64,000 bases of DNA from Amphiscolops sp. MND2022 (taxonomy: Eukaryota), in assembly GCA_964187785.1 (NCBI GenBank), contig OZ076409.1, positions 20,896,001 through 20,960,000 on the forward strand, read 5' to 3'. Positions within the stretch are counted from its first letter, which is position 1, and each line of letters opens with the position of its first letter. Position numbers and translations under genes: made by a program. The notes beneath the pieces are model-generated. The model ran no database searches. It saw nothing but the letters and a program-made list of their open reading frames with translations, and was not told where the DNA came from. Shown piece by piece: positions 12,334 to 41,069 of the stretch.

Positions 12334-12335
12334 TT

Positions 12336-12420: not shown

Positions 12421-12685
12421 GTCTATCTCTGAGAGCTTTGGCTACGGTGTATCTTGGCGATTTTGCCACTGTGTGTCTTGGCGATTGTGCCACTGTTTAT
12501 CTGGGCGATTGTGCCACAGTGTCTCTGGAGTTTGTGCCATAGTGACTCTGAGAGTTTGGACTATTGTGACTCTGGGAGTTTGAGCTAATGTGAACCTGGG
12601 AGTTTGGGCTTTTGTGACTCTGGGAGTTTGGAATAAAGTGACTCTGGAGTTTGGGCTAATGTGTTTTCTGGGAGTTGGGCTTTAG
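12421..12685 (+). repeat. ~24-bp minisatellite (about 11 copies) in the retroelement leader
   Basis: Units grade from gtgtatcttggcgattttgccact to gtgactctgggagtttgggctaat. Confidence 0.9.
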
Positions 12686-13017
12686 CAGCACTCGTGAGGT
12701 TTTTGTGTATCAATTCTAGTTTTGGGGCGAATTGTATTCTTGATTGAAGCAAAGAGTTGGTACAAGGCATCATTGCAAGTAATTCCACTAAGTAAAGGAA
12801 AGGGATCAAGTCAGAGGGACAAGATCCACGGTGACAATCAAGGTCGTCAAAGTAGGGAAGTATAATCGACAGTAGTTGGTTGATTCTTCCATATTTGGCG
12901 ATTGATTACCGGATTGAGCAGTTGACACTTTGTATCTGAGAAATTGCAGGATTCGGTATAAGTGACAAAGTCTACAAGAAATGATTGTAAAATTCAAAAA
13001 CCCTCAGTGAAACAAAA

Positions 13018-16000
13018 GTGTCATCTGAACAAATGAAAGGCAGAAAGAAGGAAAGGCACGTGATGCAGCATCCTCGAATGACAAATGTGTTTGAAGGAAG
13101 AAACACACAGCAGAACCAAACGCTGATGGAATTCAAACCAAAAGATTTGGAGAATACGTCAGATTGGTACGTGTGGAGCCTCAACTGTGATAGTTTACTC
13201 ATACCTGTGAAAAAACTCCATACGTTGTTGAAAAACTTGGATGACAAGTTCGATGAGAAAGAAACTGTTGTGTCCAAAAGCAACTTGATTGGTCAGGTAA
13301 TCGAATACTGCGAGAGAAGACAAGCGTTGCTGTTTTGTGTAGACTCCATGTTGAGTCTAACTAATGAAGAAACGCAAAAAAAGCTCAGTCGAAGTGTGTT
13401 TGAATGGGAAGAGTGCTTTGCAAAATTGAAATCGATTTGAGAATAATGGTTCCCCGAAGTGAAGCAAATGTTAAAGCGTTCAATTGAAGGGACAAAAGCA
13501 ATGAAACTAAGCCAGAAGACAAACGGAAAATCTGCAGACACAGCTATGAGATGCCCTCGCACTAAAAAGTTGAGGCAAAGACGTGTCGATCAGACATTTC
13601 AAAATTGTATAAAGAAAGCTGCTAGGGAAAAGCAATCACTGACGGAGTCAAGAAGGACCAATCACCAAAAACCTCGCTTTGTCATGGGAAACAGCATATC
13701 TGAAGTGGAAAAATCTGTCTACGTTGTGACACCAATACTCGAAGAAAGGGGTAATGTGTCTGACAAAACCATCCAGATTGACAACAGAACAACAGTTAGC
13801 TCGAAAGAGTCTAATGAAGAGCGACTGATTCCTCTAGCAGTATAGAAAGCCGAGGACCAGAACTCGGATGAATTCCAAGGCCAAAGAAGCGAGCCTGAAT
13901 CATAACAAAAAGAGGAACTGGGCAAACATTCACAACTGGTTGAAACCAGAAGCAACAAAACCTCTGTGACTTCGATAACTTCAAGCGCTAGACGAGTTCT
14001 TTATTTGAAAGTAAAAGCTACGAAAGAACAATTAGAACCGCAAGCCAGACTGGAGAAACTGAAGCGCGAAGCATTACAAAGAGAATTAACTGACTTGCAC
14101 CACTTGCGAAGCTGAAAAAGCTGAAATAGAAAAAGAAATAGCGTAAGCATCGAGCAGTCAGGGGACTAGCTTGTGAAATATCTCACCAGTCGACAGTTTC
14201 ACGGAAGACTCAGGATGGGTGGACAAGTCAGAAACAATCGAGAACGGGGCTACGTCCAAAATTGCAGTATCAGTACATTCGACGCCAGAGAATGCAGTGA
14301 ATTTAATTCACGAAGGAAAGTTCTTCGAGCCTGGGAGAGACTCCAAAACTCCCAGAGAAGCAGATGAGCGAGCTGATGGGAAAGACAGAACGAACTATGA
14401 TAATGGATCATGCAGACTAGGAGCAACATCACAACCAGAAGTGAAAGTTGCAAACAAAAGCACCTCGAAGCTCCTCACAGCGGAATGCATACAGAACTGG
14501 TCAAAAACAATCGTTTTAGAAAATTGTCGGCATTACTTCCGTTCAAAAACCCTCCTCGTGGATACCAAACAAAGTTTGGAAGAAGAGATTCACTTTGTCA
14601 TGAGTGAGCAGTCGATAGTGCAAACAGAGGTGAACTTGAATTACACAATGACGGAAACAAGGAAAGAGCATACAAGCTTAGCATTCGCATCAAGCAAGCA
14701 AACTTCGGAAGAATTGAGTGTGCAATTTGAACTGGTGCAAGATAGTGCCACAGAAGATACCACGGCACTACAGAACGTAGAACACGGGATTTTTTTCCGA
14801 ATGACAACGTTTTAAGCCGATAATCTACTCCTTGAAGAAGTAAACCAATTTTTTTTAATTTGACAAAAGTTATGGATTTGTGCACTGCAAAACGATTGGA
14901 ATGAAGAAGCTATTTATCAGAAGCCATGTCGCGTTGCAGTGAAACAAGCCCGTGGAAGGCAGTGCCAAATGTGAAAAACAAACCATGAAAGCAACCTTCG
15001 GTAAGAATTTCGATTTTGACTTCAAAGTAAGACTTGTTGAAGAAATTATTCCGAGTGATGGTACTGTACGGAAAACTTTGACTGGTAATGGAATCTCTGG
15101 GATAGACGCAGTAGCACAAGCTAACAGGATTGATAAAACTCAATTGAGCAAAGGCTACCGCAAGCGACCGAAAAAAAAGAACTTGGAAGATTGAAACTAC
15201 CTCGAACTTGTTTAATGGAAAGGAGAAAAACGCTCAGTTGAGCGAGAATGAAATACAAAAGGACACAGTTTGGCTACAAGCTTTGAGAGACAATTTATCA
15301 GTGACAAGAACGTGAATGTGTTTTTTGAAAGTACCAACAATAGCAAGTTGGAGCAATGGGTTTTGCAAAGGGCCGGCTGCACTGTTCGAGACAATGTGGT
15401 TTCAGTATGATTCTTTTGGTAAATTGGAAGTCTCTGATGTTCTATCGGAGCCTGTGAGAAACCCAGATGATGAAAAATTGGTGTAATATGGGGAAAGAAG
15501 CTCCGTGACGCTCTACAAAAAGAAGCGAAACTCCACAGCATTGCAGTTACTGGGAGAAAACTCGGATGTAGCTACGGCAATTGATGTGCCTGTAGGCAAA
15601 GAGCAAAAGGAACCCAGCGACTGAATTCAAAGCACAAATTCATTCCCATTGGATACATAGAGAACACTGAAAACAAAAAGAAAAACTTCAATGGCTGTAA
15701 TGTTGAAAAGTCTCTATATCTACTGATCATGATGCTGGATGATTCGACAACATTTCAAGAAGAGCAGATTATTCAAAAACAGGATTATGGAACGAATAGA
15801 TAACGAACAATTTTTGGCATGTCTCCCCCATGATCAGTCAACTTTGACGAGGAATTGTGTAGCAGAGCAAATTTTGGGACACTGGCGAGAGATATTATAT
15901 ATTTACATTGAAATCTACTTTTTGGATAATGAAGTAATTGAGTCGAATGAGTTCGAGCATGTTCGTAATGTAATGTAACTTGCAAATGTTCAAAAAAGCA

Positions 16001-16327
16001 ATTGATTGAATTCAAAGAATGTTGGACATTGATGCGGAAGTTTGAGATAATTGGGAAAACTATGACTTCAAATGAGGAAACAGTTTTTTGGAAATCTTTG
16101 GTTGTGTGGTGTGAATTTGTGGAAAAGAACCTTATGCTCAGCGAACTAGGATGAGCTGAAAAATTTTTGCAGTAGAGAAAGCACACAGCAAACAACCGAC
16201 AAACATGACAATGAAACTGAACATCCCCGGAAGAGAACGACGATTGACGGCAAACTTAAAAGACCAGCAATGAGACTGGCACCCTTGGTCTATGAAAGTG
16301 TTTTCGGGAGAAAAACAGGGCAGGCAA
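13018..16327 (+). pseudogene. Decayed gag-like/pol-remnant internal region of the BEL/Pao element, copy 1
   Basis: Chain of broken + strand ORFs (13018-13440, 13459-13845, 14219-14815, 14952-15194) with a coiled-coil-like segment (TSSARR...QARLEKLKREALQRE). It ends in the KLKRPAMRLAPL remnant. Confidence 0.6.
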
Positions 16328-16873
16328 TGTTGACACCTGTCAATTGCAAGATCAGAAACTCAATTTAGAAAGTGACTGATGAAGCTGATCACTCAAAACA
16401 CTTCGAAACTTTGTCAAGATAATAGTTGGAAAATTACAAGTTTCACCATGTATAGGGCATCCCCAAATTGGGCCACCCCTTGTCCGGGCGAACCACTCAT
16501 TCAATCACCTCGAAACTTGGCACACATGAATGAGTGGTGTTACCCTAACTTTTCACTTGGAACACTCTACCCCGTATATCCCCTGGGTTCCGAGCACTTA
16601 ACACCCAAAGTGACCTGGGTCGGACCACATGGAAACCCATTTTTGCTATACAAGGTATTATGTAAATTTCTCATATGACCTTGAAGGACATGTAACTCTG
16701 TTAAAATTAATAATATTTACATTGTGTAAACATACTTTCTAGCCCACCTGACAAACATGCCAAAACCACCACATTGATTGTTTACCTAACCAATATCTTC
16801 ATATTATACTTTAAATGACATTTATTAATACAAAATATTTGATGTATATTTACTGTAAAAGTGTAAACCAGAT
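16328..16873 (+). repeat. Middle LTR, 3'-truncated
   Basis: Starts TGTTGACACC after cagggcaggcaa and matches 19503-20050. At 16874 it switches abruptly to internal sequence equivalent to 13726. Confidence 0.85.
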
Positions 16874-19502
16874 GTGACACCAATACTCGAAAAAGGGGTA
16901 ATTTGTCTGACAAACCCATCCAGATTGACAACAGAACAACAGTTAGCTCGAATGGTCTAAAGAAGAGCGACTGGTTCGTCTAGCAGTAGGGAAGGCTGAG
17001 GACCAGAACTCGGATGACTTCCAAGGCCAAAGAAGCGAGCCTGGATCGTTACAAAAAAACTCGGCAAACATTCACAAGTGGTTGAAACCAGAAGCAACAA
17101 ATCCTCTGTGATTCTGAAAACTTCAAGCGCTAGACGAGTTATTTATTTGAAAGTAAAAACTCTGAAAGAACAAGAAGAACGGCAAGCCAGACTGGAGAAA
17201 CTGAAGCGCGAAGCATTACAAAGAGAAATAGCTGACTTGCACCAAAAGCTTGCCCGCGAAGCTGGAAGAGCTGAAATAGAAAACGAAATAGCGGAAGCAT
17301 CGAGCAGTCAGGGGACTAGCTTCCGAAATATCTCACCAGTCGACAGTTTCACGGAAGACTCAGGGAGGATGGAAAAGTCAGAAATAGTTGAGAACGGGGC
17401 TAAGTCTAAAATTGCAGTATCAACACATTCAACGCCAGAGAATGCAGTGAATTTAATTCACGAAGGAAATTTCTCCGCGCCTAGGAGAGACTCGAAAACT
17501 CCCACAGAAGCAGATGAGCGAGCTGATTGGAAAGACAGAACAATTTATGATAATGGATCGTGCAGACAAGGAGCAACATCACAAGCAGAAGTGAAAGTTG
17601 CAAACAAAGGCACCTCGGAATCTCCTCACAGCGGAATGCATACAGAACTGGTCAGAAACAATCGTTTTGGAAAATTGTCGGCATTACTTCCGTTCAGAAA
17701 CCCTCCTCGTGGATACCAAACAAAGTTTGGAAGAAGAGATTCACTTTGTCATGAGTGAGCAGTCGATAGTGCAAACAGAGGTGAACTTGAATTACACAAT
17801 GACGGAAACAAGGAAAGAGCATACAAGCATCGCATTCGCATCAAGCAAGCAAACCTCGCGAGAATTGGGTCTGCAGTTTGAACTGGTGCAAGATAGTGCT
17901 ACAGAAGATACCACGGCACTACAGAACGTAGAACACAGGAATTTCTTCCGAATGACAAGGTTCTATTCCGATAATCTACTCCTTGAAGAAAGAAACAAAT
18001 GTTTTGAATTTGACAAACGTTATGGATTTGTTCGTGAGCAACAGTTTGCACTGCAAAACGATTGGAATGAAGAAGTCATGTATCAGAAGTCATGTCACGT
18101 TGCCTTGAAACATGACAAGCCCGTGAATGGCGAAGACAAATGTGAAACACAAACCATGAATGCAACTTTCGGTAAGACATTCGCTTTTGACTTGTTGAAG
18201 AAACTATTCCGAGTGATGGTACTGTACGGAAAACTTTGACTGGTAATGGAAACTCTGGGATGGACGCAGTAGCACAAGCTAACGGCATTGACAAAACTCA
18301 ATTGAGCAAAGGCCACCGCAAGCGACCGAAGAAAAGGTTTTGGAAGATTGAAACTACCTCGAACGTGTTAATTGGAAAGGAGGAAAACGCTCAGTTGAGC
18401 GAGAATGAAATACAAAATGACACAGTTTGGCTACAAGCCTTGAATGACAATTTATTTGTGACAAGAACGCGAATGTGTTCTTTGAAAGTACTAACAATAG
18501 CAAGTTGGAGCCATGGGTCTTGCAAAGGGCCGGCTGCAACGTTCGAGACAATGTGGACTCAGTATGGGTCTTTTGGTACATTGGAAGTCTCTGATGTTCT
18601 GTCGGAGCCTGTGAGAAACCCAGATGATAAAAAATTTGAATATCATGGTGGAAGAAGCTCCGTGACGCTCTACAAACAAAAGCAGAACTCCACAGCATTG
18701 CAGTTACTGGGAGAAAACTCGGATGTAGCTACGGCAACCGACGTGCCTGTAGGCAAAGAGCAAAAAGAACCCAGCGACTGAATTCAAAGCAAACGTTCTT
18801 TCCCATTGGCTTCATAGAGAACACTGAAAACAAAGAAAACTTCAGTTGAGAAGTCTCGATATCTACTGATCATGATGATGGATGATTCGACAACATTTCA
18901 AGAAGAGCAGATTATTCCAAAACAGGATTATGGAACGATTAGAGAACGAACCATTTTTGGCATGTCTCCCCCATGATCAGTCAACTTTGACAAAGAATTT
19001 TGTAGCAGAGCAAATCTGTAGCAGAGCAAATCTGTAGCAGAGCAAATCTTGGGACACTGGCGAGAGATATTATATACTCACAATGAAATCTACTTTTTGG
19101 ATAATGAAGTAATTGAGTCGAATGAATTCGAGCATGTTCGTAATGTAATGTAACTTGCAAATGTTCAAAAAAGCAATTGATTGAATTCAAAGAATGTTTG
19201 ACATTGATGCGGAAGTTTGAGATAATTGGGAAAACTATGACTTCAAATGAGGAAACAGTTTTTTGGAAATCTTTGGTTGTGTGGTGTGAATTTGTGGAAA
19301 AAAACCTTATGCTCAGCGAAATAGGGTGAGCTGAAAAATTTTTGCAGTAGAGAAAGCACACAGCAAACAACCGACAAACATGACAATGAAACTGAACATC
19401 CCCGGAAAAGAACGACGATTGATGGCAAACTCAAAAGACCAGCAATGAGACTGGCACCCTTGGTCTATGAAAGTGTTTTCGGGAGAAAAACAGGGCAGGC
19501 AA
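16874..19502 (+). pseudogene. Decayed internal region of the BEL/Pao element, copy 2 (duplicate of 13726-16327)
   Basis: ORFs 17078-17758, 17598-18239 and 18236-18781 are visibly homologous to the copy-1 ORFs (e.g. LLTAECIQNWS..IVLENCRHYFRS). Confidence 0.75.
19001..19048 (+). repeat. 16-bp triplication tgtagcagagcaaatc x3
   Basis: Present three times here but only once at the homologous site (about 15857). Confidence 0.9.
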
Positions 19503-20444
19503 TGTTGGCACCTGTCAATTGCAAGATCAGAAACTCAATTTAGAACGTGACTGATGAAGCTGATCACTCAAAACACTTCGAAACTTTGTCAAGATAATAG
19601 TTGGAATATTACAAGTTTCACCATGAATAGGGCATCTCCAAATTGGGCCAACCCCTTGTCCGGGCGAACCACTCATTCAATCACCTCGAAACTTGGCACA
19701 CATATAGTAGTGGTGTTAACCTAACTTTTCACTTGGGACACTCTACCCCGTATCTCCCATGGGTTCCAAGCCATTAACACCCAGAATGACCTGGGTCGCA
19801 CCACATGGAAACCCATTTTTGCTATACAACTTATTATGTGATTTTCTCATATGACCTTGAAGGACTTGTAACTCTGTTAAAATTAAAAATTTTTACATTG
19901 TGTAAACATACTTTCTAGCCCACCAGACCAACATGCCAAAACCACCACATTGTTTGTTTACCTAACCAATACCTTCATATTATGCTTTAAATGACATTTA
20001 TTTATACAACATATTTGATGTATATTTACTGTAGATGTGTAAACCAGATTTATACTATGACTACATAGGTATTTTAACGACTGAAGAGCTATAGTCAAGT
20101 TGGGTCTTAGGACCAAAAGACTAATTGATGAACTTCTCAATCTTCACAACTTTTCGCTTGAGTCCGAGCGAACAAGTAGCTACACTCTTAGTTGGAGAAC
20201 CGGAGCGCTTGAAGATACAGTGAGGGAAGTGTGTGACGGATCACATCGGGTCCAACAAGTGTAAGAGGGATCGCAAGAGATTTCTACAGGTCACATCGGA
20301 CCCACCAGTTAAAAGATAGTCCTTTACAACAAGAAAACCAGGATTTGTTTAGTAACGGTCCACAGTACTAAGCAACGGATCAGGGCGGCGTAAAGCTTGT
20401 CAAGACTCAGCGTCAGCGCAGGATAAGGGCAAGCAGCCGTTACA
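19503..20444 (+). repeat. 3' LTR, full length (942 bp)
   Basis: TGTTGGCACC...CAGCCGTTACA, preceded by the purine-rich tract gggagaaaaacagggcaggcaa. Confidence 0.9.
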
Positions 20445-22534
20445 GAGAGTTAGAAGCTTCAAGAAGTTCCAGAAGATGTAACTAATGTTGGCAGACGCAT
20501 TTGACTGACGAATTTGCTGTTTTACGGTGGAAAAAACCTCAGAATGACCCCAGAAGTTGAAAATTTTAAATTTATGGCAATTTTACGCATATTTGTTTTT
20601 CACCACGTCTGAGCAATCTTGCGGAATACAGTAGTTTGGACTCAGCAACGACTAAACCGCTATCCAGTGGGTGTTTCTGAAGATATAACCACAATTTTTT
20701 GTTAAAATCAGAATCAAAAAACCACAAAAACCAAAACTGAAAAAAAGCTCATTGTTGGACTAAATAGTGCCAATTTAATTTCAGTTCACAAAATATTTAG
20801 TAGAGGAGAACTTTCTTTGGTTTAAACGTTGAAACAATGGGCTTTTCAAACGCTATTTGGGAAAGAAAGTCTAATACCGTTTCTCGACTTAGAGAACAAA
20901 GCATTTAACAGTTCCGAACATTTCCCTTCATCGACTACAATCTCCCAATTTTGGACATTTCTGAATGTTTTCCCCAATCAGAAAATCTATAGAATCATGA
21001 TCGAAACGCGTAGCTACCAGTACGCGTTGCAAAAAGGTATCGGAGTCGTCAAAAATTTGCAAAACTTCTAAAATAATAGTTTCCTCGAAAACGTTGAAAA
21101 AATTTTTCGAACTGTTGTAGTCAAAATTTATTTTTCATTAAACACCAAACGCAATGAATACGACTCTGAATAAGTAAACCAGTATGCCTTTGAAAGGATA
21201 AAATCGCAGTTTCCGAGGGGAAAAAGTTTCAGAAATACCCTGAACAATTCAAATTGTTTTGAAATTTTATGCGTTTTCTGTAGTGTATACAATAAGCAAT
21301 TTTGAAAAACATATCTGCAGTTTCGCGTTTGAAAAACGCGTCAAATTGACCCTAAAGTCGCCGAAAGTTTTTTGAAATTTCAAGTGATTTTTTGTGCTTA
21401 CTGAAAATTTGGTTAGTTAGTTATTGATAGCCAACTAGTTCACTTACAAAACGATTTGGAACTTAACGTTTTCGTAAATCAGAATCAGGTGTTTCTTTTT
21501 CATAAATGGGGTACTTTGAATCAAAAAGTGTCAAAACTATCTTTCTTTCAAACTTTTACACATTTCCATAGTGCATTGGCTATTTTTGAGCCTCAAGATA
21601 GTCGTTGTAGAACAGTTTGTGGCAGAAAAAATCCCACTAGTCAGCGGGCGTCTTGTTCATTAAGCATTCACAAAATTAGACCGTAAGTTATTCGACCTGT
21701 TAGTAAAAGCAGACAGATGCGCAAAACGTTACAGATGTTCGAAACAAGCTTTTTTTGAGAACAAGATGAATACCCCAAAAACTTTTTCCACGTTCCATTT
21801 TATTTTGACATTATTATGCTGGTCGTATTGTGCTTCAAATACATGTACTCAATTACGAGCTGTTGGAGAACTTTGTCCATCAAATAGCAAAGTTGAGAGC
21901 TAACAGAAAGTCTAATTAGTCTTTTTTCCCTTTTAAAAATCATTCTTACTTTTTGGAAACTCGTCAAAACGTTCATGATAATGTGGAGATATGCTGTTTA
22001 ACCCCATTTTTACTCAGTCTGGTATCCGAATAACCAAACAATATTAATCTAATCCAACAACGATAAAAACTTGGAGCTGATAAAAAATCTCTGGCGTGAG
22101 TTGCGTGAGTTCATTCACAAGTCAAAAGTTGATCAATAAGGGTACCATAGTGTAGCTAGGATTCTCAACAAAAGCTATATTGCAAGCATCAAACTGTCCT
22201 GGACAAAACCACCAAGTCAAGCCCAGTTGAGTGTTCAACTCATTGAATCATGATAACCCTGAACGCTGTCAGGTCACAATCCTAGTAAAAATGTCCTGAA
22301 TTATCGTATCGTGATTAGCTACGTTCATATACCGATATTGCCCTAAATGCAGGAGCGAAGCGAAGCGACGTGCCACTACTGGTCCAGCGGCTGAATCAAA
22401 AGTTTTGATGAAGACCGAGTCATAGACACCCGTTTTGACTTCATTTTCAAACAGATTTTAACCTAGATTTTCGTCTAAGAGATTTTAACCTCGAGGATTT
22501 TAACTTAGATTTTGACATGTAACCTTATAAGTAT

Positions 22535-22588
22535 TTTGAAAATTTATATGGGTTTACTAGCAGATGTATACCCATATAAATTTTCAAA
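22535..22588. repeat. Near-perfect hairpin (23-bp arms, 1 mismatch, 8-nt loop)
   Basis: tttgaaaatttatatgggtttac-tagcagat-gtatacccatataaattttcaaa. Confidence 0.9.
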
Positions 22589-24420
22589 TTGCTCGGATGA
22601 TCAGATCAGTTGTTTAATGACGAAATAGGAGAGCTTTTTATATATTTTTTTTGTTAATGATGTCATGTATAAAATTAAAATCCCTTAACTAACTAGGCTT
22701 CTTTTGGCTCACTGTTTATTAAGCTTTTATTCGCAGGACTTGGTTATTTCAGTGCTGCACAAAAGTTCATACATCTATGGTTGGATTTTATAAATCAAGA
22801 TAAAGTGAAGCTATAACATGAAGTTATAGTACGTAATGTAATGTGAAGAATCTGGCATGCATTAACATAATTGTTTTTCACGCCAATTACCTGACAAAAA
22901 ACACTTGTGGCGTGGAACCAACGTTATATGCGGCAACAAGCAATGAAGTTGTTATAAAGAAGTTAAAATGTCGGTGATGAAGTTACAAGCTGGTAATGAT
23001 GTTTAGCCAGATTGGTTGTTCCGATGCTGTGTATTGATTGTTTTGGTTTTGCTTTACAAGCGATCGTTTCATCTAGCACTGAAGCTGACACTGGTTTGTA
23101 TACCAGTCTTCGTACCTGTATTCAGCAGTTGAATAACACGAACGGCGAAGCACGAGCTAAAAAAGTAATAACAACCGACTTGACGAAACAAGAAGCAAAG
23201 TTTTCAGATGACTTCAGAAATAATCAGTTGATTATTGTTGAATTACATAGAAAGCGGGCCAAGTTTTTGCTTGTTAGCTATGCTCATAGTACACATGAAG
23301 TCATTATAATTAAAGAACGGCAGAAACTCAATTCAAGAATATTCTTGCCTAAAATTGCATCAAATTATTACATCAAAAACATGAAGCATTATTCTTAATT
23401 TTCTCAAGTGCAATCGGAATTGCTCTGTGATTCAACTGAACATAGTAATATATATGAAAAATTGGTTCAGCTCTTGCTCAACTTTTTATCCAAATAAAGA
23501 TACCTATTGTCATCAATAACATCAACTGAGCATTATCTTTACTGGTCATATCTTTATAGCCTAACTTTTCGTTATTACCATTTGGAATAGAAAACTTCAG
23601 CTTTGAAGAGCATTTAAAAAATCACAGAACGACTCCTATTAAAATTTTGACTCCTATAGCGAAGTTTAAAGTAACGGAATCATTCCGCAAGTGAAAAGAA
23701 ACAAGCGCGGGAAAGTGCAGCCACAGCCGATTTGCAGCGAAGGGTGTCAAGAAGAGCGAGGATTGAACAAATCAAGAGGGAGAAAGTTGTAGTTTGGGTT
23801 AGATCACAATCTCGGATTATTCGAGAAGTGGGGTGACGTTTTGAGGAGTGGAAGGGAGAGCGAATCAGATAAAGACGGACATCTTGGGTTGTTGGGCGTC
23901 GTCTGTGGTGACCTTAAACAGCACCCGAGTCGTGTCTTGTCGTGTGGTCGGGTGACGAGGCGACGGGTGACGGCGGCAGTTGATTGCAGTTGATCCGTGC
24001 TCTATCTCGAATTTTGTATTGAATTATGGGCATACTAAACCAATAGCCCAAAATTTGGGAAGTAAACAAATTCAGTTTAAATCTGCGTGCCTTTGATATT
24101 TGCCCGACAAAACCAACCCTCGTGGCCCGCTGTATCTACATAAAATACCATTGAAAGGCCATTCAATAATTGTTATTTTCCGACTCGATTCTAACCAACT
24201 AGTAATATTATTATCTTCCTATCTTGTACTTGTTCTTATTAAGCAAACAGATTGTTCTTGCTAAGTTCGGCCTATTTATTATTAGACACTGTTTCAAATA
24301 TTTGCCGTTTCTAACTTTTCTGATTTCGTGAAAGTGACATTCAGCAAAGAACTCGTACAACATATCAACATCCATCCTTTCTTTGATTCTTCTACTTCTT
24401 CTCTTCTTTCGCTGCTGCAG

Positions 24421-26085
24421 CTGCTAAGAGACACAGCATTCTGCTCTCAAATCCCACCCTGGATTTTAGTCTGAAACCACCCAGCTCGAGGACAGGCGTT
24501 GGCGCTTTGCAACAACGGTATCACAGGTGCCCTCTTTGCAACCTGCCAATTTTAGCCGGTGCGAAAACGCACACCTCTTCTGTCTGTGGACACACAGTTC
24601 ATAGCGACTGTTTCGCTGATCTGCGCATTTTCACCAACCGGGTTTGGAAGTGTCCAATTTGTGAGTGCCCTCAACCACCTGCTAGACAAGAGCAGGTACA
24701 AACAGTGCTGCAACATCATCACGAACAGGTACCTTCTGATTTATACCCCCAGCTATTGAGGCTCACCCAGCAACAGCAACAACAACAAAAACTCTTGCAA
24801 CATCAAAGTACCCCCAAGAGTCTATTCAAACCAAGCATGGCTGAATCTCTTCAAACAGCAGCAGCTCATGGGTTTGACCTCACGCCCTATATTGGGTCAT
24901 CAACGTTCTACGAAAACGCCGACATTTCAGACGCCGCCACTATGGACCGTCTTCACTCACCTCCAAAACCCAGCCCACTTTTGGTGCCAGGTTGGAAAAA
25001 ATACGCTGGAGCTAATGGCTTGTTTGACGGTGCCCAAACTACACCTGATACCATGATGGATAGAAGATCCGGCATGTCCAGTTATGCCAGTTTTGATTCC
25101 AGTCTTCCGACACAGGTGGCACCAGCAACATACCTGCCAGCTGAACCACAAGACCCTTTCCGTGCTAAACTTTACCAGGGAATCTTGTCCAAGAAAAAAA
25201 TTAGTGAATCTCGGCGAATTAATGGACAGTCTATCCAAAATATTATTCCATTTGGATCTCTGGATGGCATCGTCGATTCGAGGCAAAAAACAACCAGCAA
25301 TGACTTGGTTGCCAATAATTTGTTAAGAAGTGCTGCTTTGGACACTGAAACAAGAAATAGTTTGAACATTCCAACAAGTTCTTCTCAATTACCATTAGAG
25401 CACGATATGTTTCTCAGAAGCATTAACGAGCTCGCAGGAATGCATGATATGTCGTCTATATGCAGAAGTGTTTTTTCAGACGAAAAGTTGCAAGGCAACA
25501 ACAGGAAACGTTTGATTCACTTTCCAAACACAAAGAAAGATATAGACCCGTCAATCAAAGTGCCTAGGATGTGGGACTCTTACCAGGGTCTGTCTAGTAC
25601 TTCAGGTAGCATGAGCTCTGATGAGAAAATCATTATGTGGTATAACGTCACTGTGAGAAAAGTAGCGGAAAGTTATCACTTGAAAAGCGAAGATGCGTTG
25701 CATCAGCAACAACGCATGATCACACAGATGAATGAAACAGATCCAATTGAAGTCAACGAACCATCAGATGAATTGAGAGAAATTCCAGAAAAGGTCAAGA
25801 ACAACAACATTGAAGAAGATGTCCAAAGTTTCGAACAAGTTGACCCCGTAGTACAAGACGATGAACCTCTTGACCTTTCAATGTCGGCTGTCACCGAGAG
25901 CCACAGCTCGAAAGCGGCTTCCGAGGTCGATGATAGGTCAGAGGTGTATGACAACCCTGAACCTTTTGAAGTTGACCCTGAAGCTTTGAAGGAGCCAATA
26001 GTTGACCTGATTGATAACGAAGTGATTGGCTATTCCGATGACACCAAAGTTCCTCGATCCAGGAGAGAGTGTCGCAAGGGCCCAG
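24421..26085 (+). CDS. RING-H2/ETS gene, large coding exon (RING-H2 finger, polyQ, low-complexity linker, PLDLS motif); upstream start exon not located
   Basis: Open frame over the full 1665 nt in AT-rich DNA. Polypyrimidine tract plus CAG acceptor at 24420. C-x2-C-x15-C-x-H-x2-H-x2-C-x13-C-x2-C at 24528-24662. Donor CCAG|gtacgt at 26085/26086, phase 1. Confidence 0.85.
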
Positions 26086-27202
26086 GTACGTTTCAATATG
26101 GTTACAATCCCCATCAATGATGACTTGAGTAACAATCATTAAAGAGATAACTTTGTAAAACCTTGTGATTCTTTGTAAGATTTTTAAAAATCCTGAAGAA
26201 GTGCTCCACTTTAGGAGTCTAAGGTATTTGGTGACCCCAATGATGGTACTGATCTTTGATTTCTGATATATTCAATGAGTGTGATTAACATGAAATTTTA
26301 TGATCAATGAATGGTCAATGTTCTAAACAATGGTCACACGCTCTTAATTTTGATGACGAATAATTGCACTGAAATTTACAGTCATAACATTACTTATAAA
26401 ATTTCTATTTTTTCAATGACAAATTTTTCATAAGTACAAAGTTGTCTTGAATTCTATTCATAGATGTTCTATTCATACCCCAATAACTGAACAAAGAACT
26501 CATTCATTTGTTTTTCAATTTAACATTTTAGACGACAGTTTGAGAGTTCAACAAGGTTTGCTCAACATGAAAATTAGCCCAGCGTTCGACATCATTGAAA
26601 TGTAACCAGGATTTTGAAAAAGCATGCAAAACCTTGCAAGAACTTCAAAAACTTTGTACTTGTACTTGATAACAATCCAAACATGGGGAAAAGATAATAA
26701 AATTTCCTTTGATTTAGTTTTTGTTCTTATTGCTCAAATTTTTTGCGACAACCTAATTGACATGGTTTTCAACTTGATCCTAAATTTTTTTTACTTTATG
26801 ACTGAAAACAGGATGTAACTGAAAGCCATTAGCGGCTCGATTCGCACATAGTCGAGCGCTGGGAGAATCTATGTGGAATCATCTTGATCACAATCCAGTT
26901 TCACTCACTATTTCACAAACCTCGCTATGTGTGAAATCATTTTGTGCAGTCATTTCATCGAAAAATACAGTATCGAATTGATGAAGCCTTTGTTTTGGAT
27001 CACTGTATAGTATATTAAATGATTAAATCAAGTTGAGCGCCCAAAAAGACATCCCAGCGTTTGACATTGACACATGGGGAAAAGCAAAACTTCAACGAAG
27101 GTATCCATGAACTGACTGCTCCAGTAAAAACATTACCGTACATCAATGCTTTTTCGAAAACATTACTATTCAGAATTTATTCAGAATCTCCAAATTTTCT
27201 GA

Positions 27203-27440
27203 GGGGGAGCATGGAGTAATGGTTAGAGCATTCGGTCTGTACAGGGGCCGTATCAGGTTCGAATCTCTCTCAACTCACCATTGTTGGGCCATAAGCAAGT
27301 CCTTCATCCCTAGCTTAGTGGTATTGTCAATGACAAAAAATAACGCATTTGGCGGAGAAAAAGCAAAAACAAAAAGAGCAACGGTGAGCAGTCACACCTT
27401 TGTGATCTTGAGCAAGTCATTTTGAACTCACAGCTTCAAG
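27203..27440 (+). mobile_element. tRNA-derived SINE remnant (intronic)
   Basis: A-box-like tggagtaatgg and B-box ggttcgaatc, head ending in cacca, poor cloverleaf pairing. Followed by CORE-like segments (gggccataagcaagtcctt; gtgatcttgagcaagtcatt), which are also seen near 43200 and 56868. Confidence 0.6.
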
Positions 27441-27740
27441 TCCACCATTGCTTGACCACTTGGCTGCAAATATGGTACCATAGCTTGCTATGGGCAGATA
27501 GTATCCGAAAAGGCGCCGACTTAGAAACGCATAGCTGCTTATTCGGCGTCCACTCCGCGCTAATGGGGAAATTAACTTTTTTCTTTCCCATCATGTTGAA
27601 CAGTGTTTTTGGATGTCGATGTTTTTCATTTTTGTGTCGACGACTTCTTCATTCTAAAAGCTTATACTTTTTAACTTTCGCGCTTTTTTTTCGGCAATGG
27701 CCGCTTGAAATTGACCCACAAACGGTGTTGTGTGTTACAG

Positions 27741-27917
27741 GGATAGCGAGGAATCTGAAATCTGCCAAGTTGTGGGAACTGCTATTGTGGCTGCTCAGCA
27801 GACCAGAGCAGTACTCGGCTGTGATCCAATGGAGAAACAAGAGCATCGGGTATTTCAAACTAGTCAGCGATGAACTGCTGTTGGAGATTTACAACGACTA
27901 CAAAGACAGTATTCCCG
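27741..27917 (+). CDS. RING-H2/ETS gene, exon encoding the N-terminal half of the ETS domain
   Basis: ttacag|GG acceptor and CCCG|gttggt donor, both phase 1. Translates as KLWELLLWLLSRPEQYSAVIQWRNKSIGYFKLV, matching the ETS LWxFLLxLL...I-x-W...G-x-FKL pattern. Confidence 0.9.
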
Positions 27918-29139
27918 GTTGGTTTTTTACCATGTATAACTTCTGTCGCCTAAATTACAGGTTACACTTTTAACAAGGCACAGTGTAGTCATGAATATTT
28001 TCTGGAAGTTGTGAAAAATTTATTGATTGCTTTCAAAAATATTCCTCAGAACCCTTGTATATAATTGGGGAGTTTCTCAGAATGAAAGAATTTTTATAGA
28101 AATTTCTCTGATGCTTTGTAAGTGGAAATTGTTTGGTTTTGTAAGCTTCTGTCTCGTGATTCAAAGTAGTTTTCACTCATCAAAATTGAACTCTAATGAA
28201 AATGGAAAACCAAGAACGTAGAAATTATAAACGGCAACAAAAGTTTCATAATCCCATAGTTGAAACTATTTTGAGATTGCTATGAATTTTGAAAAAAATA
28301 GACAACTCCAACTAACGCTCACAACCACCTAGCCTTTTTTCTAAACCCAGATTTTTGCGTGGATTCTAAACTTCAAAAAATAAGATTTTTAGGAAATGTG
28401 GTTTGATCCACAAGTCATAATTCCAAGAAATTTTTGTCAAAAAGGCTTCGAAAACTGCTGCGAAAAGCATCAGACAGATATTTGAATGTTTCGGAAGGTA
28501 TTATTTGTTATAAATACTCATGAATTTCAGCTCAAATGCTCAATGATAAGTATATTAATGTAAACGTTTGTATTCATAGACACAATATGAGTTTTCTGTA
28601 TATTCAAGTCAAGTTTCTTCAAGTAAATGCAACTCGAGCGAAGTTAAGAAGTCACCCAATTTGCTTGTTAAGCAGAACAAACTTGTTCAGTACTACGGTC
28701 ACGAGTGAAATGCAAACTAAATGTCACTCTGCAAAGGATAATATTGATATCTTTCTCTCAATTGGGTTCCGTACTCCGGAATAACATTTCTGTATGTTTT
28801 CGCAATGATTAAACAAGACAGTTGAATTCCTATACCACGATTTCATCCAAAATGTTTCCTAAATTTCGAATGAAATTTCCACCAAGATTACTCAGAAATG
28901 TTAGGAAGTTAAACCCGGTTAATGTTGAAGAGGTATCACAAATTTCTTATTCTTCGTGACTCTCGTTTTTTCCCCCATTTTTCCTTCAAGATAGAAAAAA
29001 AATGGCTTTTCTCAACCAACATTTTCTCAAGTTTTGCCGTAAACTTATTGGCGGACACTATCCCGGGCGACTAGAATCGTGTTGAAACTACCCTTGATGC
29101 AGCATCGAACAATCGCATTGAATGATTTAGAATATCGGC

Positions 29140-29650
29140 AAGGCGCAAACTGAGAACGGAGATTATGAAATTTACAGTGCCAAAAATACTCGAAGGGACA
29201 CCCATAAGACTCGTAAACCGCTCTTCCCTAATTCTAAAAGAAAAAAATCCAATTTTAGAAAAAAAAGTTGTCAAGAATTTTCCCGGAAAATGTATAGTGC
29301 CGGAAAACTCAGAAGGAACCTTTTAAGTTCACAAAACGCTTTTTCTCAGCCAAAAAGTTTTTTTTGATGAAGGGGCACTCTTTAACCAAATAATTTTTTT
29401 CGCAAAAATTAATAATTTTTTTGCCAAAAAAACAGTAGATCTTTTACACATATATTTACACTCTCATTAGAAACAGGACCCAAAATATAACAAAAGACAT
29501 CACCCTTGAAAGTCGGAAAACCGTTTTCCTTAACAGAAAATTTCAAGAAAAAAACAAAGTGTGATTTTTTTTTCAAAAACAATGTCTTCGATAAGTCACA
29601 TAGTGACGGAAAAATCTGAGGGTCCTCTATCCTCGCAAAACGCTTTGTTA
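29140..29650 (-). repeat. Interspersed repeat fragments related to the HINE-like families
   Basis: Carries the recurring atagtgccg(g)aaaa / tttcggcactat motif shared with 11150, 30080 and 43305. Confidence 0.35.
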
Positions 29651-29655
29651 TTGCT

Positions 29656-29900
29656 AACAAGCCGGGACCGGCGCCATAACAAGTCGGCGCCATATCCAAG
29701 GCTCAAAAATAGCAAAAGGACTTCCAAGAGTCAATTTACAGTACTCGAAAATCGAAAAAGCAAAAAAATGGACCGAGTGGCGCGCCGGGGCCCTCTAGCG
29801 CGAGTCCCTGCCGCGCTAAAAGGGGGACACTTCCGAAATTGTCAACATTTTTGTCTGTTGAAAAAAAATCTCACAATGCCGAAAAATTGAAAGGGGGCTA
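29656..29900 (-). mobile_element. HINE-like family B 3' fragment, reverse orientation (intronic)
   Basis: aacaagccgggaccgg...aagtcggcgccatatccaaggctcaaaaa is the reverse complement of the family 3' end. Confidence 0.65.
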
Positions 29901-29904
29901 AAGC

Positions 29905-30481
29905 TTTTGTCGTCAGTAGAAAACTTAGAAGGATTGGTTTTACGAGTTTTTTTTCGGCATTGCGAGACTCTATTACCGAAATGTTTTGATGTCGCCGAAG
30001 GGCCTTCTCTTTGGTTATTTGGATTTTCTGCAACCAACTGGATAATAACAAAGCCCAAAAGGTCTCCTCTTTTGCGTTTTTCGGCACTATGAAATTCTTA
30101 CTTTTCGTCAAAAATTTCATTTTCAGTTGAATTTTCCAATTCTATTCGAATTTTTGACCTTATATCCGTAGTGAATTGCGTCTTAGTAAGGAGAAAGCGG
30201 AGGTTCAAAAATTTTGTGCTAAATCCGAACTATGACGTTATATCCGAAGCAAATTGTGTTTTACCAAGGAGCAGACCGATGCTCGGAAAAAAGCGTTCCC
30301 ATGTGGCCCATCACGCTATATTCTAACTTCTGAAGCGTTTTCCGAGCACGAAAGGCACCCTTTGGAAGTTTTGAAATTTTTCTGAGATTTTCATAAAAAA
30401 CACCCTGCGCATATTTCAAAAACTTTGCGCTTTTTGAGCCATAGGTATAGCGCCGACTTGAGACGTTCCTGCCGTGTTGTT
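29905..30481 (+). mobile_element. HINE-like family B copy with internal ~90-bp repeats (intronic)
   Basis: Ends tttttgagccataggtatagcgccgacttgagacgttcctgccgtgttgtt. Internal units (tatatccg..aattg..taaggag..gcggaggttc) are shared with 61555-61810. Confidence 0.6.
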
Positions 30482-30737
30482 ACTTTTCCCTATATAGAAT
30501 TTTTAATCGGCGTTTTTATATGAGAAAAGAGCCTGACTATTATTAGAACTAACAGATGCTATTAGTTTTTTGAGTGCCATTTTGTGATAAGAAGGAGGAC
30601 TCGTAAAAAAATTACTAGTAATCTTCAAAACGGTGATGATGTCTTTAGGTTGAGGTCAAAATCATCGTAATATGAGCATTTGAATAGTGTTTTCATGATT
30701 AGAAATTGATGAACCCGCTTTTCCATTTCCATTCCAG

Positions 30738-31504
30738 GGCGAGTTCCCCTCAAAAGAAAGATCCTTTACTCGAGTATCACTAGAGCCTTGCGTCACTATT
30801 ACTGGAATAGCACCTTGCACCCTACCCCTAAAAGGAAAACATACCAGTTCGGACCCAACGCCACCGACTGGCAGCTAGGAGTGCAGAGGGAACACGCCCT
30901 ACAAAGTCTGGACTACTGGGAGAAGACCAAACACCAGAGAAAGAGTTACAGCCACACTTTGTACGCAGAGCCAGCATCCCCTGACAGCTCTGATGGCGAG
31001 TCTAACCAGTCTTCGCAGAAACACCAAGTCACGTGCTCAAATTCAAGCTCAACTTCAAACTTGAGCCCACAAACATTCCCAACTTTTCAGAATGGTGAAA
31101 AAAGCAACGGGGTTCTTTATGGAAAAGCGTTGGACGTGGCATTGAGAATTGAAGACGAGATTTCAGGTGTTCGTAAAAGTTCAATGAGTTTTTCCGAAGT
31201 TTCAAAATCGACACTTCCTACAAAAATCAAGCAAGAAGTGCTGATTTCAAGTGCGGATCAGAACGATAACAGTTTAAGACCCCTTGACTGGAAACCAGTT
31301 AAGGAGCTAAACCTGAAGGAAGAAGAGGAAAAAGAGGAGAAAAATCATGTACCACAACCTGATGACGACGACGACGACGAAGATGATACCAGTTTTTTAC
31401 CGATTGACCTTTCTGTCAAGTTGAATGGGGTTGAAACTGAAAAGTTGTCTATACGTGGTTTGACCTCTAATGGCGTTTCAAGGTCACAACCCATGGAGGG
31501 TTGA
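30738..31504 (+). CDS. RING-H2/ETS gene, exon encoding the ETS recognition helix/wing, acidic tail and PIDLS motif
   Basis: ttccag|GG acceptor, phase 1. Translates as ILYSSITRALRHYYWNSTLHPTPKRKTYQF, matching the ETS Y-x-KLSRALRYYY...K..Y-x-F pattern. TGA at 31502-31504. Confidence 0.9.
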
Positions 31505-36281: not shown

Positions 36282-37399
36282 TTACAAAGGCAGTGTTCCG
36301 GGTAAGGCGATAGGCCTTGTGTGGTCAATCGTGTAAATATTGCCATCGCGGGCGGCCGTCTGTGACACTCCCCCTGGTAATAATAGAAAAGTGCCATCCT
36401 GCATTCCTTCTAACAAAGCAACCTTTCGAGCTCCTAGCTGGTCCGCTGTTTCTCCCAAAATAGCCGTATTGCGCAGGTAATCTGTAACTGCCTCGCTTTG
36501 GATCTGTATGGTAGATTTCCCACATATCACACAGTCCGAGTTATTTGCCATCGGATTGTATGTATCGATTTCCATTGCTTGGAGATAGTTCGTAACTGTC
36601 TCCACGGACTGCTGGGTATTTGTGCCTTGAACGTCCACCGGACTAGGATTGTAAGTCGGTCCCTTTTCTTCTGGTGGGGGGGGGGCGACATGGGAGTATC
36701 CACCATGGGGATAATTTCTCTACATAGTTTTATCGGGTGGTTACTAGGTACTCGGTCGTCTTGTTTGCTTTTCCTAGCGAGAAGAAAGATTGGTCAAAAG
36801 TCGGTCTCGAAGCGAAATATGGTTTGGGAGTCTCATACCTAGACGAGCCGTACTGGGGGGGCGTCATTTCTGATTTTCAATGTACTAGAGGGACCCGGAA
36901 CAGGGATTGGCGATGATAGTTTCATCTCGACACACTGGGCAATCATATTGATTTCATCATCAATCTCCTCGTCTTCTGATGATAAATGAAGGTCCAAGAC
37001 GAAATTTATGCTCATATCGCACATCTCGTCTTCGTCGTCACTATATCGGCAGATTGTATCCACTCTATCGGGCGCAGCGCCTTGGATGTCTTCAGGAAAT
37101 CGTTGAGCCATGTATCTATCTTTTATCATCTTTTTCGCAATTTTGAATGCAATTGCCTATTTCGGTTTGATTTCAGGAGGGTAACTGTTCAGTTTGAAGG
37201 TTAGGAGGTAAATGGCAAATTTTGTTTCCGGATTTCTTGATAGTTTCTGCCTCATATTTTCCCGGGTTCTCATTTCCCCGCATTGTGTTTCATTGATGAA
37301 ACTACCCGACATATTCTTTGATATAGGCCGCCTTCGCTTTGTTGACCGTCGATCAACTCCAATTTGCCTAAGCCGGCAAAGAACTTTTAAGGACTTCAT
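36282..37399 (-). pseudogene. Interrupted ORF of unknown function with a CxxC motif, probably TE-borne
   Basis: Successive minus-strand ORFs (37157-37399, 36839-37129, 36282-36638) with protein-like composition, separated by stops or frameshifts. Confidence 0.4.
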
Positions 37400-38286
37400 C
37401 TAGTGTTTATCTCCTCTTGATGGCCACTTGAAATCTTCAAGAGGTTGCATCTATGGCTGAAGGCCACGCGCGTCGATGTGTCTGTGACGACCAATGGGAA
37501 TTCAGATTAATTCCTCGCATCGCAAGATGGCGAATCAAGAAGTAAGCAGCCAAAAATAGAAAAAAAAGATAACTAAAATAATAAGACAATGGAAACTGTA
37601 TATTTCGAAATTTCAATAATGCGGATTTCTCTGGCAGATTCCATCCACGAAGTAGTTTCTGTAATTGTAAAAACATTTGACATCAAGTCAAGTTTGCCAC
37701 AAGATCCAATCTCTTCTGCATTAACAATCTTCTAATCTTTCAATTGTTACTTTACGAATTCACATTTTAACCACCGTTTATTTAGTTCCATAGTTAGTCT
37801 TTTAGTCTTCTTTCTTAGTTTCATACAGTTCATCTGCGAACAATTTTATGCTTCTGTCGCGCCTTCTTACATCACTGTCTAGACGCCGTGGTCGTCACAT
37901 CGCCATTTGGGCTTTACCCAGGGTTTACTCCCTCATCTTCGATCCCCACAGTTTCAGCCGATTACGACGTCTCGTTCTCGTTGACTTGTGCTCCTCACGT
38001 CAACACGAGCTTCCAGTCCTTTCTGAGCTACTACAACTCTTGTGCTTCTACGATTAGTCCTCTTACGTCCATCAGCCATAGGTAAGCTATTTTGACTTTC
38101 AATTTTGAACGGAAATGAGCTTGATCAGGGCTCTTCCTCTCGTTCATGCCTATCCTGTCCATCTTCACTAAGAAAACTTAGCATTCCGATTATTTTCTTT
38201 TCACTTCCGGAAGGTTTTATTTGCGGGTGTTCATGGACTCATATTCAGGAAGTTGTCCGCTATACTTTATCTCCTTCTGTTTAGAT

Positions 38287-40990
38287 ATGTCGTCAGAGAA
38301 GGAGTTGCCAAAATCCACTACTCCTGGTGTTAATGGAGATAATGCCACTGAAGGGCTGAGACAAGAGATTGGTGAAGTAGTTGACATTGCTCGTCCTTTA
38401 TCCCGGACGTCTATATCTAGCCGGTCCACAGAAGAAAACGTGTCTGCTTTCATTGAAAGTACAGTCTCTCCCATGACATTGCCGATACCGCATGCCTGTT
38501 GTCACATTCCTGCCTGCTCCGAGCCCTACGGTGGTTACTTCGACGGCACAGGTTGACCTTTCGAAAGCATCAGTTTCCGATCCTAATATTGTAAATCAGG
38601 ACACGACCAAAGGAGGATCTGACCCCGCTGTCAGAGAGGAAGTGACGTCCCAATTTGAAGCAGCACCATTGTCTGCCGATACTACCAAACGTTGACGATT
38701 TATTAGAAAGTTCTGGAGTTGACGCATTTCGTCGTGTTACGTCCACTATGGCATGGGATCCGACTGCTTTTCCCGATTTTGAAGGAGAATTTCGGGAAGA
38801 ATCTGGCCACAGTCACACTGAGCAGGAGCAACACCGTGCTAAGGTTGCAAGCACAGTTAGGCAATTAACTTCAAAGGAAGGTCCGTTATTCGGAAATACT
38901 TTACCGCTGCCACGCACGTCCAATTACCAGCTGGTCACACTACTGTTGCCTTTAATGAAGACCAAGTGCACACCGTCCTCCGCACAATTGCTGATGAATC
39001 CGTGATATCCTCTCATCACATGATGAAGTCCCTCCACGCCACGCGCGGTGCCCCACAGGACAAGAAGAGAAGCCTATCTCGGCGTTGTGCCACGCCTGCA
39101 TGCCAACCCCATGGTAGTTCGGAGGACGAAAGCAGCCTAGGGGGACACGCCACTGATGGGTACACTAGTGGAGCAATTAACTCGGACGAAGATCCATATC
39201 AGCTTGGGTTTCATCTCAGGGCGTAAGCGAAGCTGATCCAGCAACAATTGTTCTCGAGGCACCCCTTGGGCTTGATCCCAGTACATCCCGAGCTGAAGTT
39301 ACCACGCCAATTTCTGGAGACGGGTACAGCACTGCTGACCACCAACCGTTTTCGGTCCTAAGGCGGTCAAGGGAAACTGATATTCCCTCAGTCAGTAGCC
39401 CTCGAAAGAGGAGACGATTGCTCAGCAAGCCAGGAAAGTTTATGAAAGATGCGTACTTCAAGGGCATCCAGTGGACGCGGACCTTTGTGCCTGGACCTCT
39501 CGACCCCGTCCACAACAAGTTCAAATTCTATTGTATGCTGTGCAAGACCAATGTATCTATTTATTCGAAGGGCGCTAGAGAGATTCTGCGACACTACAGG
39601 ACAGAAGGCCATTTGAGAAAGGATCAAAAAAGTGGAGGTATGTCCTCTTGCAGGAAACAGACGAAGTTACTGGAATCGTCACGCATTATGTCAGGGGCAA
39701 GGACGTTTACGTCCTAACTCCCGTCGAGTTGGAAAAGGAGAAGTTTTTCTTCATGGATGTCCCCCTCGTTGAGGCAGGGGACCAATTCCCGTTTAATGAA
39801 GACTACATGGCCAATATAGGAGGGATTACCAATCCAGACGATTTGAGAACCATCGCCTTGATTTCCCTTATCGGCACTTTCGTACCCAAAGATGGAAATT
39901 TCTCTCTGTTGCAGAGCGTTTGGACGAAGGTTGGACAGTTCACTAACCATCAGGCCTCATTTTCCTCCTTTGACTGGGGATCTGTTACTCTTACCGTCAG
40001 TGTTTCTTCTTCCTTGTCGCTCCAATTGATAGCCGCACCGGGTTTACTGTTTCTGAATCCTTATCATTCTTTCCTTTCTGTTTCAGAATATCTTTCATCA
40101 TATCTTCATGTGTGGGCTCTCTGACATCTCTGGACATGTCGTCGCCAGCGATTTGTATTCATTGAGTTTAGAACTCAGGGGGTTCATCGCCGCATGTTAA
40201 TTCGCTTCTGGAAGGACGATATACTGACCAGAGTTGAACTGTGTTGTCACCATCAAGGAGAGATTTACCCTGATTGTTATCTGGCTGCGATATCTCACTT
40301 GTTATCCTTCATCTCATCCAAGCCTAGTTTGGTCAGCGTCTCCGTATGTTCTTCCATGGTCTTCCGTGCTCTAGAGACGTGTGGCCTTTACAAAAATGGG
40401 ATACAATACCCGTTCAGTTTCGAAGTTTTTTTGCCCTCCAAGAACCTATGCAACCGAATGTTCTGCAGACCAAGCATGTCTTTGGACGTATCGACATGTT
40501 CTCACAACTCAAAAATCCGGTCGTTTTCTTGCGAGGATGCCAGAGCCAGCCCTGGGCCCTTCAGTGTCCCGAGCTTTGCAAGGTTTCTTTCTTATCTCAT
40601 TTTCTTTCATAATCTGATCTTATGTTCTCTGCTATGTAGACCTGTAGTCACTACTTTCCTTCGTCATAGTCGAAGGCCAGCGCTCCAGTACTATTCTGTT
40701 TTCCATTTGCAGGTCTCAGCCTCGTGTGACATACAGTTGAGGAAGATCCCATCTTTGTGTTCCGAACTCATCAAACATTGGAAGGCCATCTTTGAGTTCA
40801 TGGCGAAGGCGGCCCACCACAAGTGTTGCAGGGAGTCAAAAATAAAGTTCGTACACCTTTGGTTTTCTATTTTGCATTTAGTCCGGATTAGTATTCCAGT
40901 CCTTCAATTTGGTCAAAGATTTCCCTGCTCCCCTTTTGCCCTTTTCATTTCAGCCACAAAGTCTGGAATGGGTGATAGTCCAAGATGACT
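38287..40990 (+). pseudogene. Frameshifted, intron-containing hAT-like transposase gene
   Basis: Overlapping + ORF fragments run from MSSEKELPKS through an NLS (PRKRRR) to a BED-like finger FYCMLCKTNVSIYSKGAREILRHYRTEGH. Probable intron at about 39996-40086 (gtcagt...tttcag), then LYSLSL...MLIRFW and LIKHWKAIFEF segments. Catalytic DDE residues are not confidently identifiable. Confidence 0.5.
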
Positions 40991-41069
40991 TCTTGACCGT
41001 CAAGCTCGAGTTTTTCTCTCACTTAGTTCGAGATTGTTAGTTGTTTTTTCATAACCATGTAACTCATTA

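Follow-up and report, generated by a model that had tools for sequence, protein, structure and literature searches.

The 64,000-nucleotide (nt) stretch analyzed here, called the window throughout, spans positions 20,896,001 to 20,960,000 of the 104-Mb contig OZ076409.1 in the 1.07-Gb genome of the acoel Amphiscolops sp. MND2022. Its plus strand carries a gene predicted to join a RING-H2 finger to an ETS DNA-binding domain (Table 1). An initial annotation had described three exons joined through GT-AG sites in phase 1, with a complete C3H2C3 RING near the N-terminus and an ETS domain built from exons 2 and 3. This architecture was recovered as a prediction from the DNA. The splice dinucleotides are present at the proposed positions: exon 1 ends at CAG/GTACGT (last exon base 26085), exon 2 begins at TACAG/27741 and ends at CCG/GTTGGT (last exon base 27917), and exon 3 begins at TTCCAG/30738. 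Joined by script, the exons give a single frame of 868 codons from 24423. Many other nearby GT/AG pairs also keep the frame, so frame alone is weak proof, and the sites were fixed through relatives.

All of the RING zinc ligands are present in RING spacing, C-x2-C-x15-C-x-H-x2-H-x2-C-x13-C-x2-C. Positions 1-46 of Pfam Ets (PF00178) fall in exon 2 (27.6 bits, cut-off 26.9) and positions 47-80 in exon 3 (22.4 bits, under the cut-off by itself), whereas zf-RING_2 scores 27.7 bits for the isolated RING domain (cut-off 27.3) and 22.5 bits in the whole open reading frame (ORF). The HMMER comparison suggested by the initial annotation thus places exon 2 and the isolated RING above threshold and exon 3 below it. 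An AlphaFold model of the whole of exon 1 had a mean confidence score (pLDDT) of 37 and was used only to call the exon mostly disordered. Two blocks of exon 1, 25077-25196 and 25437-25796, show 75-95% identity to the second species described below, have no Pfam match, and give a weak helical prediction; they may be conserved interaction surfaces.

Table 1 Features of the RING-ETS locus (window coordinates)
Feature	Position	Strand	Details
Putative non-coding first exon / 5' leader	23457..24061	+	ATG-free to 24025; consensus-type donor GAA/GTAAAC at 24062 (inferred)
Upstream ORF (uORF), 6 codons	24026..24046	+	Strong context; sole ATG of 23457-24836; also the start used by the GC-donor alternative
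Pyrimidine tract + CAG, cis- or trans-splice acceptor	24389..24420	+	87% pyrimidine; CTGCAG/24421
Large exon 1	24421..26085	+	RING, Q-rich linker, mostly disordered conserved blocks, basic RRECRKGPG end, phase-1 donor
Candidate CUG start	24459..24461	+	acc-CTG-g; no other in-frame near-cognate codon of 24387-24527 combines a -3 purine with +4 G
RING-H2 (C3H2C3) finger	24528..24662	+	Glu as next codon (linchpin position)
First in-frame AUG	24837..24839	+	agc-ATG-g, MAESL; likely start of RING-less 730-amino-acid form
SUMO consensus LKSE	25680..25691	+	Conserved
CtBP-type motif PLDLS	25866..25880	+	PLDLT in P0002
Exon 2	27741..27917	+	First half of ETS domain
Exon 3	30738..31504	+	ETS recognition helix ITRALRHYY, wing, ESE-like FGPNATDW tail, disordered C-terminus, stop
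SUMO consensus IKQE	31226..31237	+	IKEE in P0004
Second CtBP-type motif PIDLS	31400..31414	+	PIDLT in P0004

Conservation of the gene in a second species

A second species was compared through two protein sequences, P0002 (exon 1) and P0004 (exon 3). With exon 1 as query, two matches were obtained among 7,774 candidates, a 99% identical copy and P0002, which is 60% identical and includes the RING. The exon 3 query gave one match among 324 candidates, P0004, and no same-species copy. The ortholog search proposed in the initial annotation therefore returned counterparts of both the RING exon and exon 3. The contigs that carry P0002 and P0004 are both 129,281 nt long and are almost certainly one and the same.

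The conservation bears on the possibility that the RING exon is transcribed apart from the ETS exons. Such a split would suit a 26085>27741 junction that is inferred from DNA and an acceptor at 27741 with only 50% pyrimidines. However, conservation stops exactly at the exon 1 donor: the final exon-1 codons are identical to P0002 at 16 of 16 positions, and past the donor, from 26086, identity falls to 4 of 11. Exon 2 lacks an independent start, and the ETS paralogs described below have the same phase-1 acceptor. Within the 1,655-nt intron the sole complete ORF of at least 100 codons is a frame of 104 amino acids (aa), and the exon-1 and exon-3 orthologs are linked in the second species. Separate transcripts are therefore very unlikely, and the three exons are with high probability predicted to be spliced into one gene encoding one protein.

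A wider search of 1.84 billion representatives returned P0001, P0002, and two weak low-complexity matches, P0005 and P0006. A scan of JGI metagenomes gave 293 pattern matches, of which 0 were confirmed, and the Atlas matches, all below 0.9, were generic RING clusters and Ets-only clusters.

ETS domain, paralogs, and effector motifs

The best PDB match of each ETS half is ELF5 (E values of 1.3e-4 and 3.9e-5). ELF3 and EHF are among the six highest-ranking matches, and the scores of PDEF and PU.1 come close. The recognition-helix Arg pair is kept, ITRALRHYY aligning to LSRALRYYY of ELF5; in ETS proteins this pair functions in reading GGA. The first two conserved ETS Trp residues are present and the third is Tyr, as in both paralogs. 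The Pfam search gave no SAM_PNT match at E values up to 1. Taken together, the domain appears to be a divergent, ESE-like ETS domain.

Two divergent ETS paralogs, L020 (G000:C6:33585218-33587559, minus strand) and L024-L026 (C6:62290066-62312148, plus strand), form a small subfamily with this gene. A conserved W..GV.R..A..S...W extension after the wing is common only to these three genes here, and in both paralogs NL.SAKLWE is closely preceded by a phase-1 acceptor. In one of them (paralog A) a large exon lies upstream and ends at a phase-1 GT donor, and the ETS domain is interrupted by the same phase-1 intron as in the gene studied here, whereas in the other (paralog B) the intron inside the ETS domain is placed elsewhere. 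No RING pattern was found within 40 and 50 kb around the two paralogs. An ORF ~19 kb upstream of paralog B contains an MLDLS motif.

These data support well the claim of the initial annotation that a RING+ETS gene exists that is specific to the lineage: the gene is conserved and linked in a second species, and the intron phase of the paralogs agrees. The simplest history would be that one member of a small ETS subfamily gained the RING before the two species split.

Both PxDLS motifs and both SUMO sites are conserved inside variable blocks, and two PxDLS/T motifs occurred in only 1 of 20,000 shuffles. CtBP is encoded in the genome, and PLDLS is its canonical site (PMC6379669). The protein is thus probably a CtBP-recruiting repressor.

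Probable translation of the RING finger

The RING is identical to that of P0002 at 31 of 45 residues (69%) with 8 of 8 zinc ligands kept. Its flanks are far more variable, with 8 of 23 residues identical immediately on the N-terminal side and 15 of 50 in the Q-rich linker that follows (30-35%), whereas the part of exon 1 that follows the first in-frame AUG at 24837 averages 277 of 416 (67%). The frame is open from the RING to the MAESL sequence encoded at that AUG in both species, despite an indel-rich linker. One could suppose that the RING is an untranslated relic in a 5' untranslated region and that only the 730-aa protein is made, given that canonical local splicing brings no AUG to the RING. 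A relic would hardly be conserved as strongly as the AUG-started part, between far more variable flanks and in an open frame, and this explanation is extremely improbable. These comparisons argue that the RING is almost certainly translated as protein. No second copy of this RING was found in the genome.

The AUG at 24837 looks like a true start, the jump in identity being that expected at a true N-terminus: from this codon on, 24 of 25 residues are identical in P0002, as against the low value in the linker before it. The initial annotation had counted a start at this codon, with no coding exon upstream, among the findings that would speak against its proposal. Conservation of the RING at the protein level favors a non-AUG extension instead.

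The sequence preceding AUG 24837 is depleted of ATG. Over the 1,380 nt of 23457-24836 a single ATG occurs on the plus strand. The ATG-free gaps on either side of it, of 808 and 569 nt, exceed all others in 348 kb of strand sequence (the window plus 11 ten-kb loci, both strands), the next being 552 and 530 nt. No ATG-free sequence was obtained in 2,000 dinucleotide shuffles for either gap. The depletion is on the plus strand only, the minus strand being normal; the 569-nt leader gap has 0 ATG on the plus strand and 8 on the minus strand, with 44% GC and 27 CpG within 23500-23999. A divergent promoter, considered from a flip of GC skew near 24000, was rejected on the grounds that ATG is depleted only on the plus strand. 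The effect shrinks if only the 126-codon extension is considered: an out-of-frame ATG was missing from 2.4% of synonymous randomizations, and the chance of having no Met is ~6%. Rfam gave nothing at gathering score in the window and two chance-level matches in the leader. The back-translated P0002 leader found its best match in the 348 kb ending at 24429, a weak result (25.5 versus 24.3 for the next), and an apparent frame change upstream of the RING, likewise weak, was seen at only one of three gap settings.

The upstream coding exon assumed by the initial annotation is not evident, and the RING lies inside an ATG-free leader. No open in-frame AUG was obtained through any of the GT donors tested (23691, 23798, 24017, 24062, 24202, 24265, and 24334), nor when the leader was left unspliced or replaced by the acoel spliced leader, which contains no ATG. 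This spliced leader was reported for an acoel, with 30.2% of genes trans-spliced (PMC9911081), and its exact copy in the genome makes an acoel origin very likely. The copy, L030 (G000:C7:10870359-10870392, minus strand), is an exact spliced-leader exon, and only a few bases downstream of it an ORF begins with MGVPAFFRWISKKYPS. The arrangement of a spliced-leader copy and then a protein-coding start makes L030 look like a retrocopy of a trans-spliced mRNA, which is likely, rather than a spliced-leader RNA gene. This ORF start resembles that of a 5'-3' exoribonuclease.

Among the leaders tested, only a weak GC donor at 24030 supplies an open in-frame AUG. The same RING-ETS protein could alternatively begin at an ordinary AUG in an upstream exon, with RING inclusion set by splicing or promoter choice, either from ATG 24026 through a GC-AG intron (24030-24420) or from an exon farther upstream, for example a mini-exon whose phase-1 donor is CTG/GTAATG at 22993. 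In favor of this, 24421 follows a strong acceptor, and ATG 24026, flanked by A at -3 and G at +4, is put in frame with the RING by the GC donor; there are also several ATG..GT phase-1 candidates in 20997-23118, including some near 22968-22992. However, the GC site, TGG/GCATAC, is far from the GT(A/T)A(G/A) read at the donors of six tubulin introns of the same genome. Neither a constitutive intron nor ordinary coding sequence needs to be free of ATG, yet 24029-24420 and 24421-24836 are so free, as were only 5 of 2,000 and 2 of 2,000 shuffles, respectively. Moreover, 22500-23000 contains 18 ATGs, and a decayed repeat and retrotransposon ORFs lie farther upstream. An upstream AUG is possible, with perhaps a minority share of the probability.

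The explanation we favor, somewhat tentatively, is initiation at a non-AUG codon with leaky scanning, giving a RING form beside a RING-less form. A lack of AUGs between a non-AUG start and the main AUG has been described as the mark of leaky scanning, which yields C-terminally coincident isoforms (PMC3105428). The exact start codon is a matter of candidates, of which CUG 24459 seems the best. It has the purine at -3 that is found in 11 of 11 true starts of this genome (A in 9/11, G in 2/11; 18 rows less 5 spurious matches and 2 duplicates). In one protein alignment the T-L-D at this site aligns with N-L-E in P0002, and the register shifts in another; the N-L-E match, if it holds, would mean A at -3 and G at +4 in P0002 as well. 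TTG 24055 is a second strong near-cognate candidate if the donor is 24062.

RING function, known systems, and neighboring sequences

A model of the RING, built with the aid of an alignment of other RINGs, shows the cross-brace fold with a central helix (pLDDT 80.5) and matches RING-H2 domains with a Foldseek probability of 1.00, the top rows being EL5, Arkadia, and RNF165; the use of that alignment makes the match in fold circular in part, and an E value of 0.001 was not reached by any Foldseek row. At the linchpin position the residue is Glu here and Gln in P0002, whereas the 21 RINGs with the full pattern among the 30 top RING loci of the genome have Arg or Lys in 21 of 21 cases. The helix Trp present in 16 of those 21 is Leu here. 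Just past the finger, at window 24666-24668, an extra Cys stands two residues after the last ligand and is kept in P0002 (C-E-C-P-Q-P-P here versus C-Q-C-P-Q-P-P).

When the linchpin of RNF38 and XIAP was substituted, Glu ranked with the least active residues, and R454E in RNF38 nearly abolished binding of the ubiquitin-charged E2 (E2~Ub) (PMC12326332). Together with the Glu/Gln linchpin and the Leu at the helix Trp position, these data make a strong stand-alone E3 less likely. Canonical E3 activity of this RING is therefore doubtful, and an interaction or turnover module, or a partner-dependent E3, is the more likely prediction. The DNA-binding E3 ligase proposed by the initial annotation loses ground on the same two substitutions, and the PxDLS and SUMO motifs point to a repressor. 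Full E3 activity of the DNA-bound RING form toward histones or cofactors at ETS sites, whatever the start mode, would be in keeping with the complete set of zinc ligands, the retained Leu of the first CxxC and Pro of the last, the modeled fold, and the existence of natural E3s with non-Arg linchpins (XIAP Tyr and Doa10 His; PMC12326332). Set against the linchpin and helix residues, the RNF38 result, and the circularity of the fold match, we consider such an enzyme unlikely.

We propose a divergent ESE-like, CtBP-repressing ETS factor made in two forms from one mRNA, one of them with an atypical RING, and regard the odds of this whole combination as about even. Scanning ribosomes would meet no AUG before 24837 except that of the 6-codon uORF; part of them would start at CUG 24459 to make a RING form of ~856 aa, and the remainder would reach the strong AUG 24837 to make the RING-less form. 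Translation would thereby set the fraction of the factor that carries the RING. The main role of the RING would be in interaction or self-turnover; alternatively, it would work as an E3, but only if a partner RING is present or the E2 can dispense with the linchpin. A bolder version, in which the first RING-bearing ETS factor is switched by a uORF-tuned CUG/AUG choice from a CtBP repressor to a self- or chromatin-ubiquitinating protein without a linchpin Arg, seems improbable to us.

Several observations weigh against this proposal. No candidate for an ortholog of exon 2 appeared in the homolog search (51-163 aa), and the full-length spliced protein was absent from the 1.84 billion representatives. 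GGA binding is not assured, given the missing third Trp and an insertion of ~8 residues before helix 3. The linchpin census drew on top HMM scorers. The ATG-depleted stretches were chosen after being seen, and 569 nt is barely above the background value of 552 nt. The depletion itself shows only that ribosomes likely scan toward AUG 24837; a second promoter with an AUG-containing exon might supply the RING form. Upstream of ~24477 the alignment to P0002 depends on gap penalties, which makes the equation of the CUG with the Leu of N-L-E insecure. The hairpin downstream of the CUG is weak, being equaled by 7 of 200 shuffles, and it begins ~33 nt past the codon, not ~15.

The protein is like the ESE factors (ELF5/ESE-2, ELF3/ESE-1, and EHF/ESE-3) in its FG.NA..W tail and helix Arg pair. 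It differs from them in the lack of a PNT/SAM match, the N-terminal RING-H2, the third Trp replaced by Tyr, the insertion before helix 3, the extension after the wing, and a long C-terminal tail. ELK3/Net is a CtBP-recruiting ETS factor. We know of no RING in ELK3/Net, EVI1/PRDM3, or PRDM16, which have another DNA-binding domain or belong to another ETS subfamily. The PLDLS-type motifs, of which there are two here, both conserved, are a likeness to the CtBP recruiters EVI1/PRDM3 and PRDM16 (PMC6379669).

With RING-H2 E3s such as Arkadia/RNF111, RNF165, RNF38, Pirh2, and EL5 the protein shares the ligand pattern and predicted fold. Identity to them is only 20-30%, and it differs in the acidic or neutral linchpin, the Leu for helix Trp, the extra conserved Cys after the last ligand, and the linkage to a sequence-specific DNA-binding domain. 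RNF187 may be another RING protein with a non-AUG start. The conserved in-frame extension with an upstream in-frame stop, a candidate CUG in good context, and apparently no AUG before the main AUG resembles the extensions described in PMC3105428; those often carry localization signals, whereas here the extension would be a whole folded domain.

ETS proteins are substrates of separate E3s, such as COP1, SPOP, and F-box proteins (PMC8151852); a built-in RING would newly wire ubiquitin control to DNA binding. A limited literature search, which covered few subscription papers and included no architecture census, found neither a RING+ETS protein nor this gene. The combination of RING, ETS, and non-AUG initiation is probably new, each part being already known, and it rests on two species. 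If the CUG start is true, standard annotation misses the RING form; the prokaryote-style gene calls P0001 and P0003 of this species do start downstream of the RING. A whole domain would then be switched by the choice of start codon, in an acoel. Acoels are a lineage important for early bilaterian evolution.

Elsewhere in the window, a tRNA-like stretch with A- and B-box-like sequences (by eye) lies in intron 1 at 27205-27285; ARAGORN and Rfam made no call there, and it is thus possibly a short interspersed nuclear element. Upstream of the gene, 11748-20148 is a decayed repeat with copies ~3.15 kb apart that are 91-96% identical, and it also contains a 300-nt unit three times and broken ORFs without a convincing Pfam match. 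Downstream, 36282-41000 holds fragmented ORFs, including a CxxC..H zinc-finger-like stretch at 39181-39717. A similar piece is present in the 20 kb upstream of the window, and this region is thus probably a mobile element.

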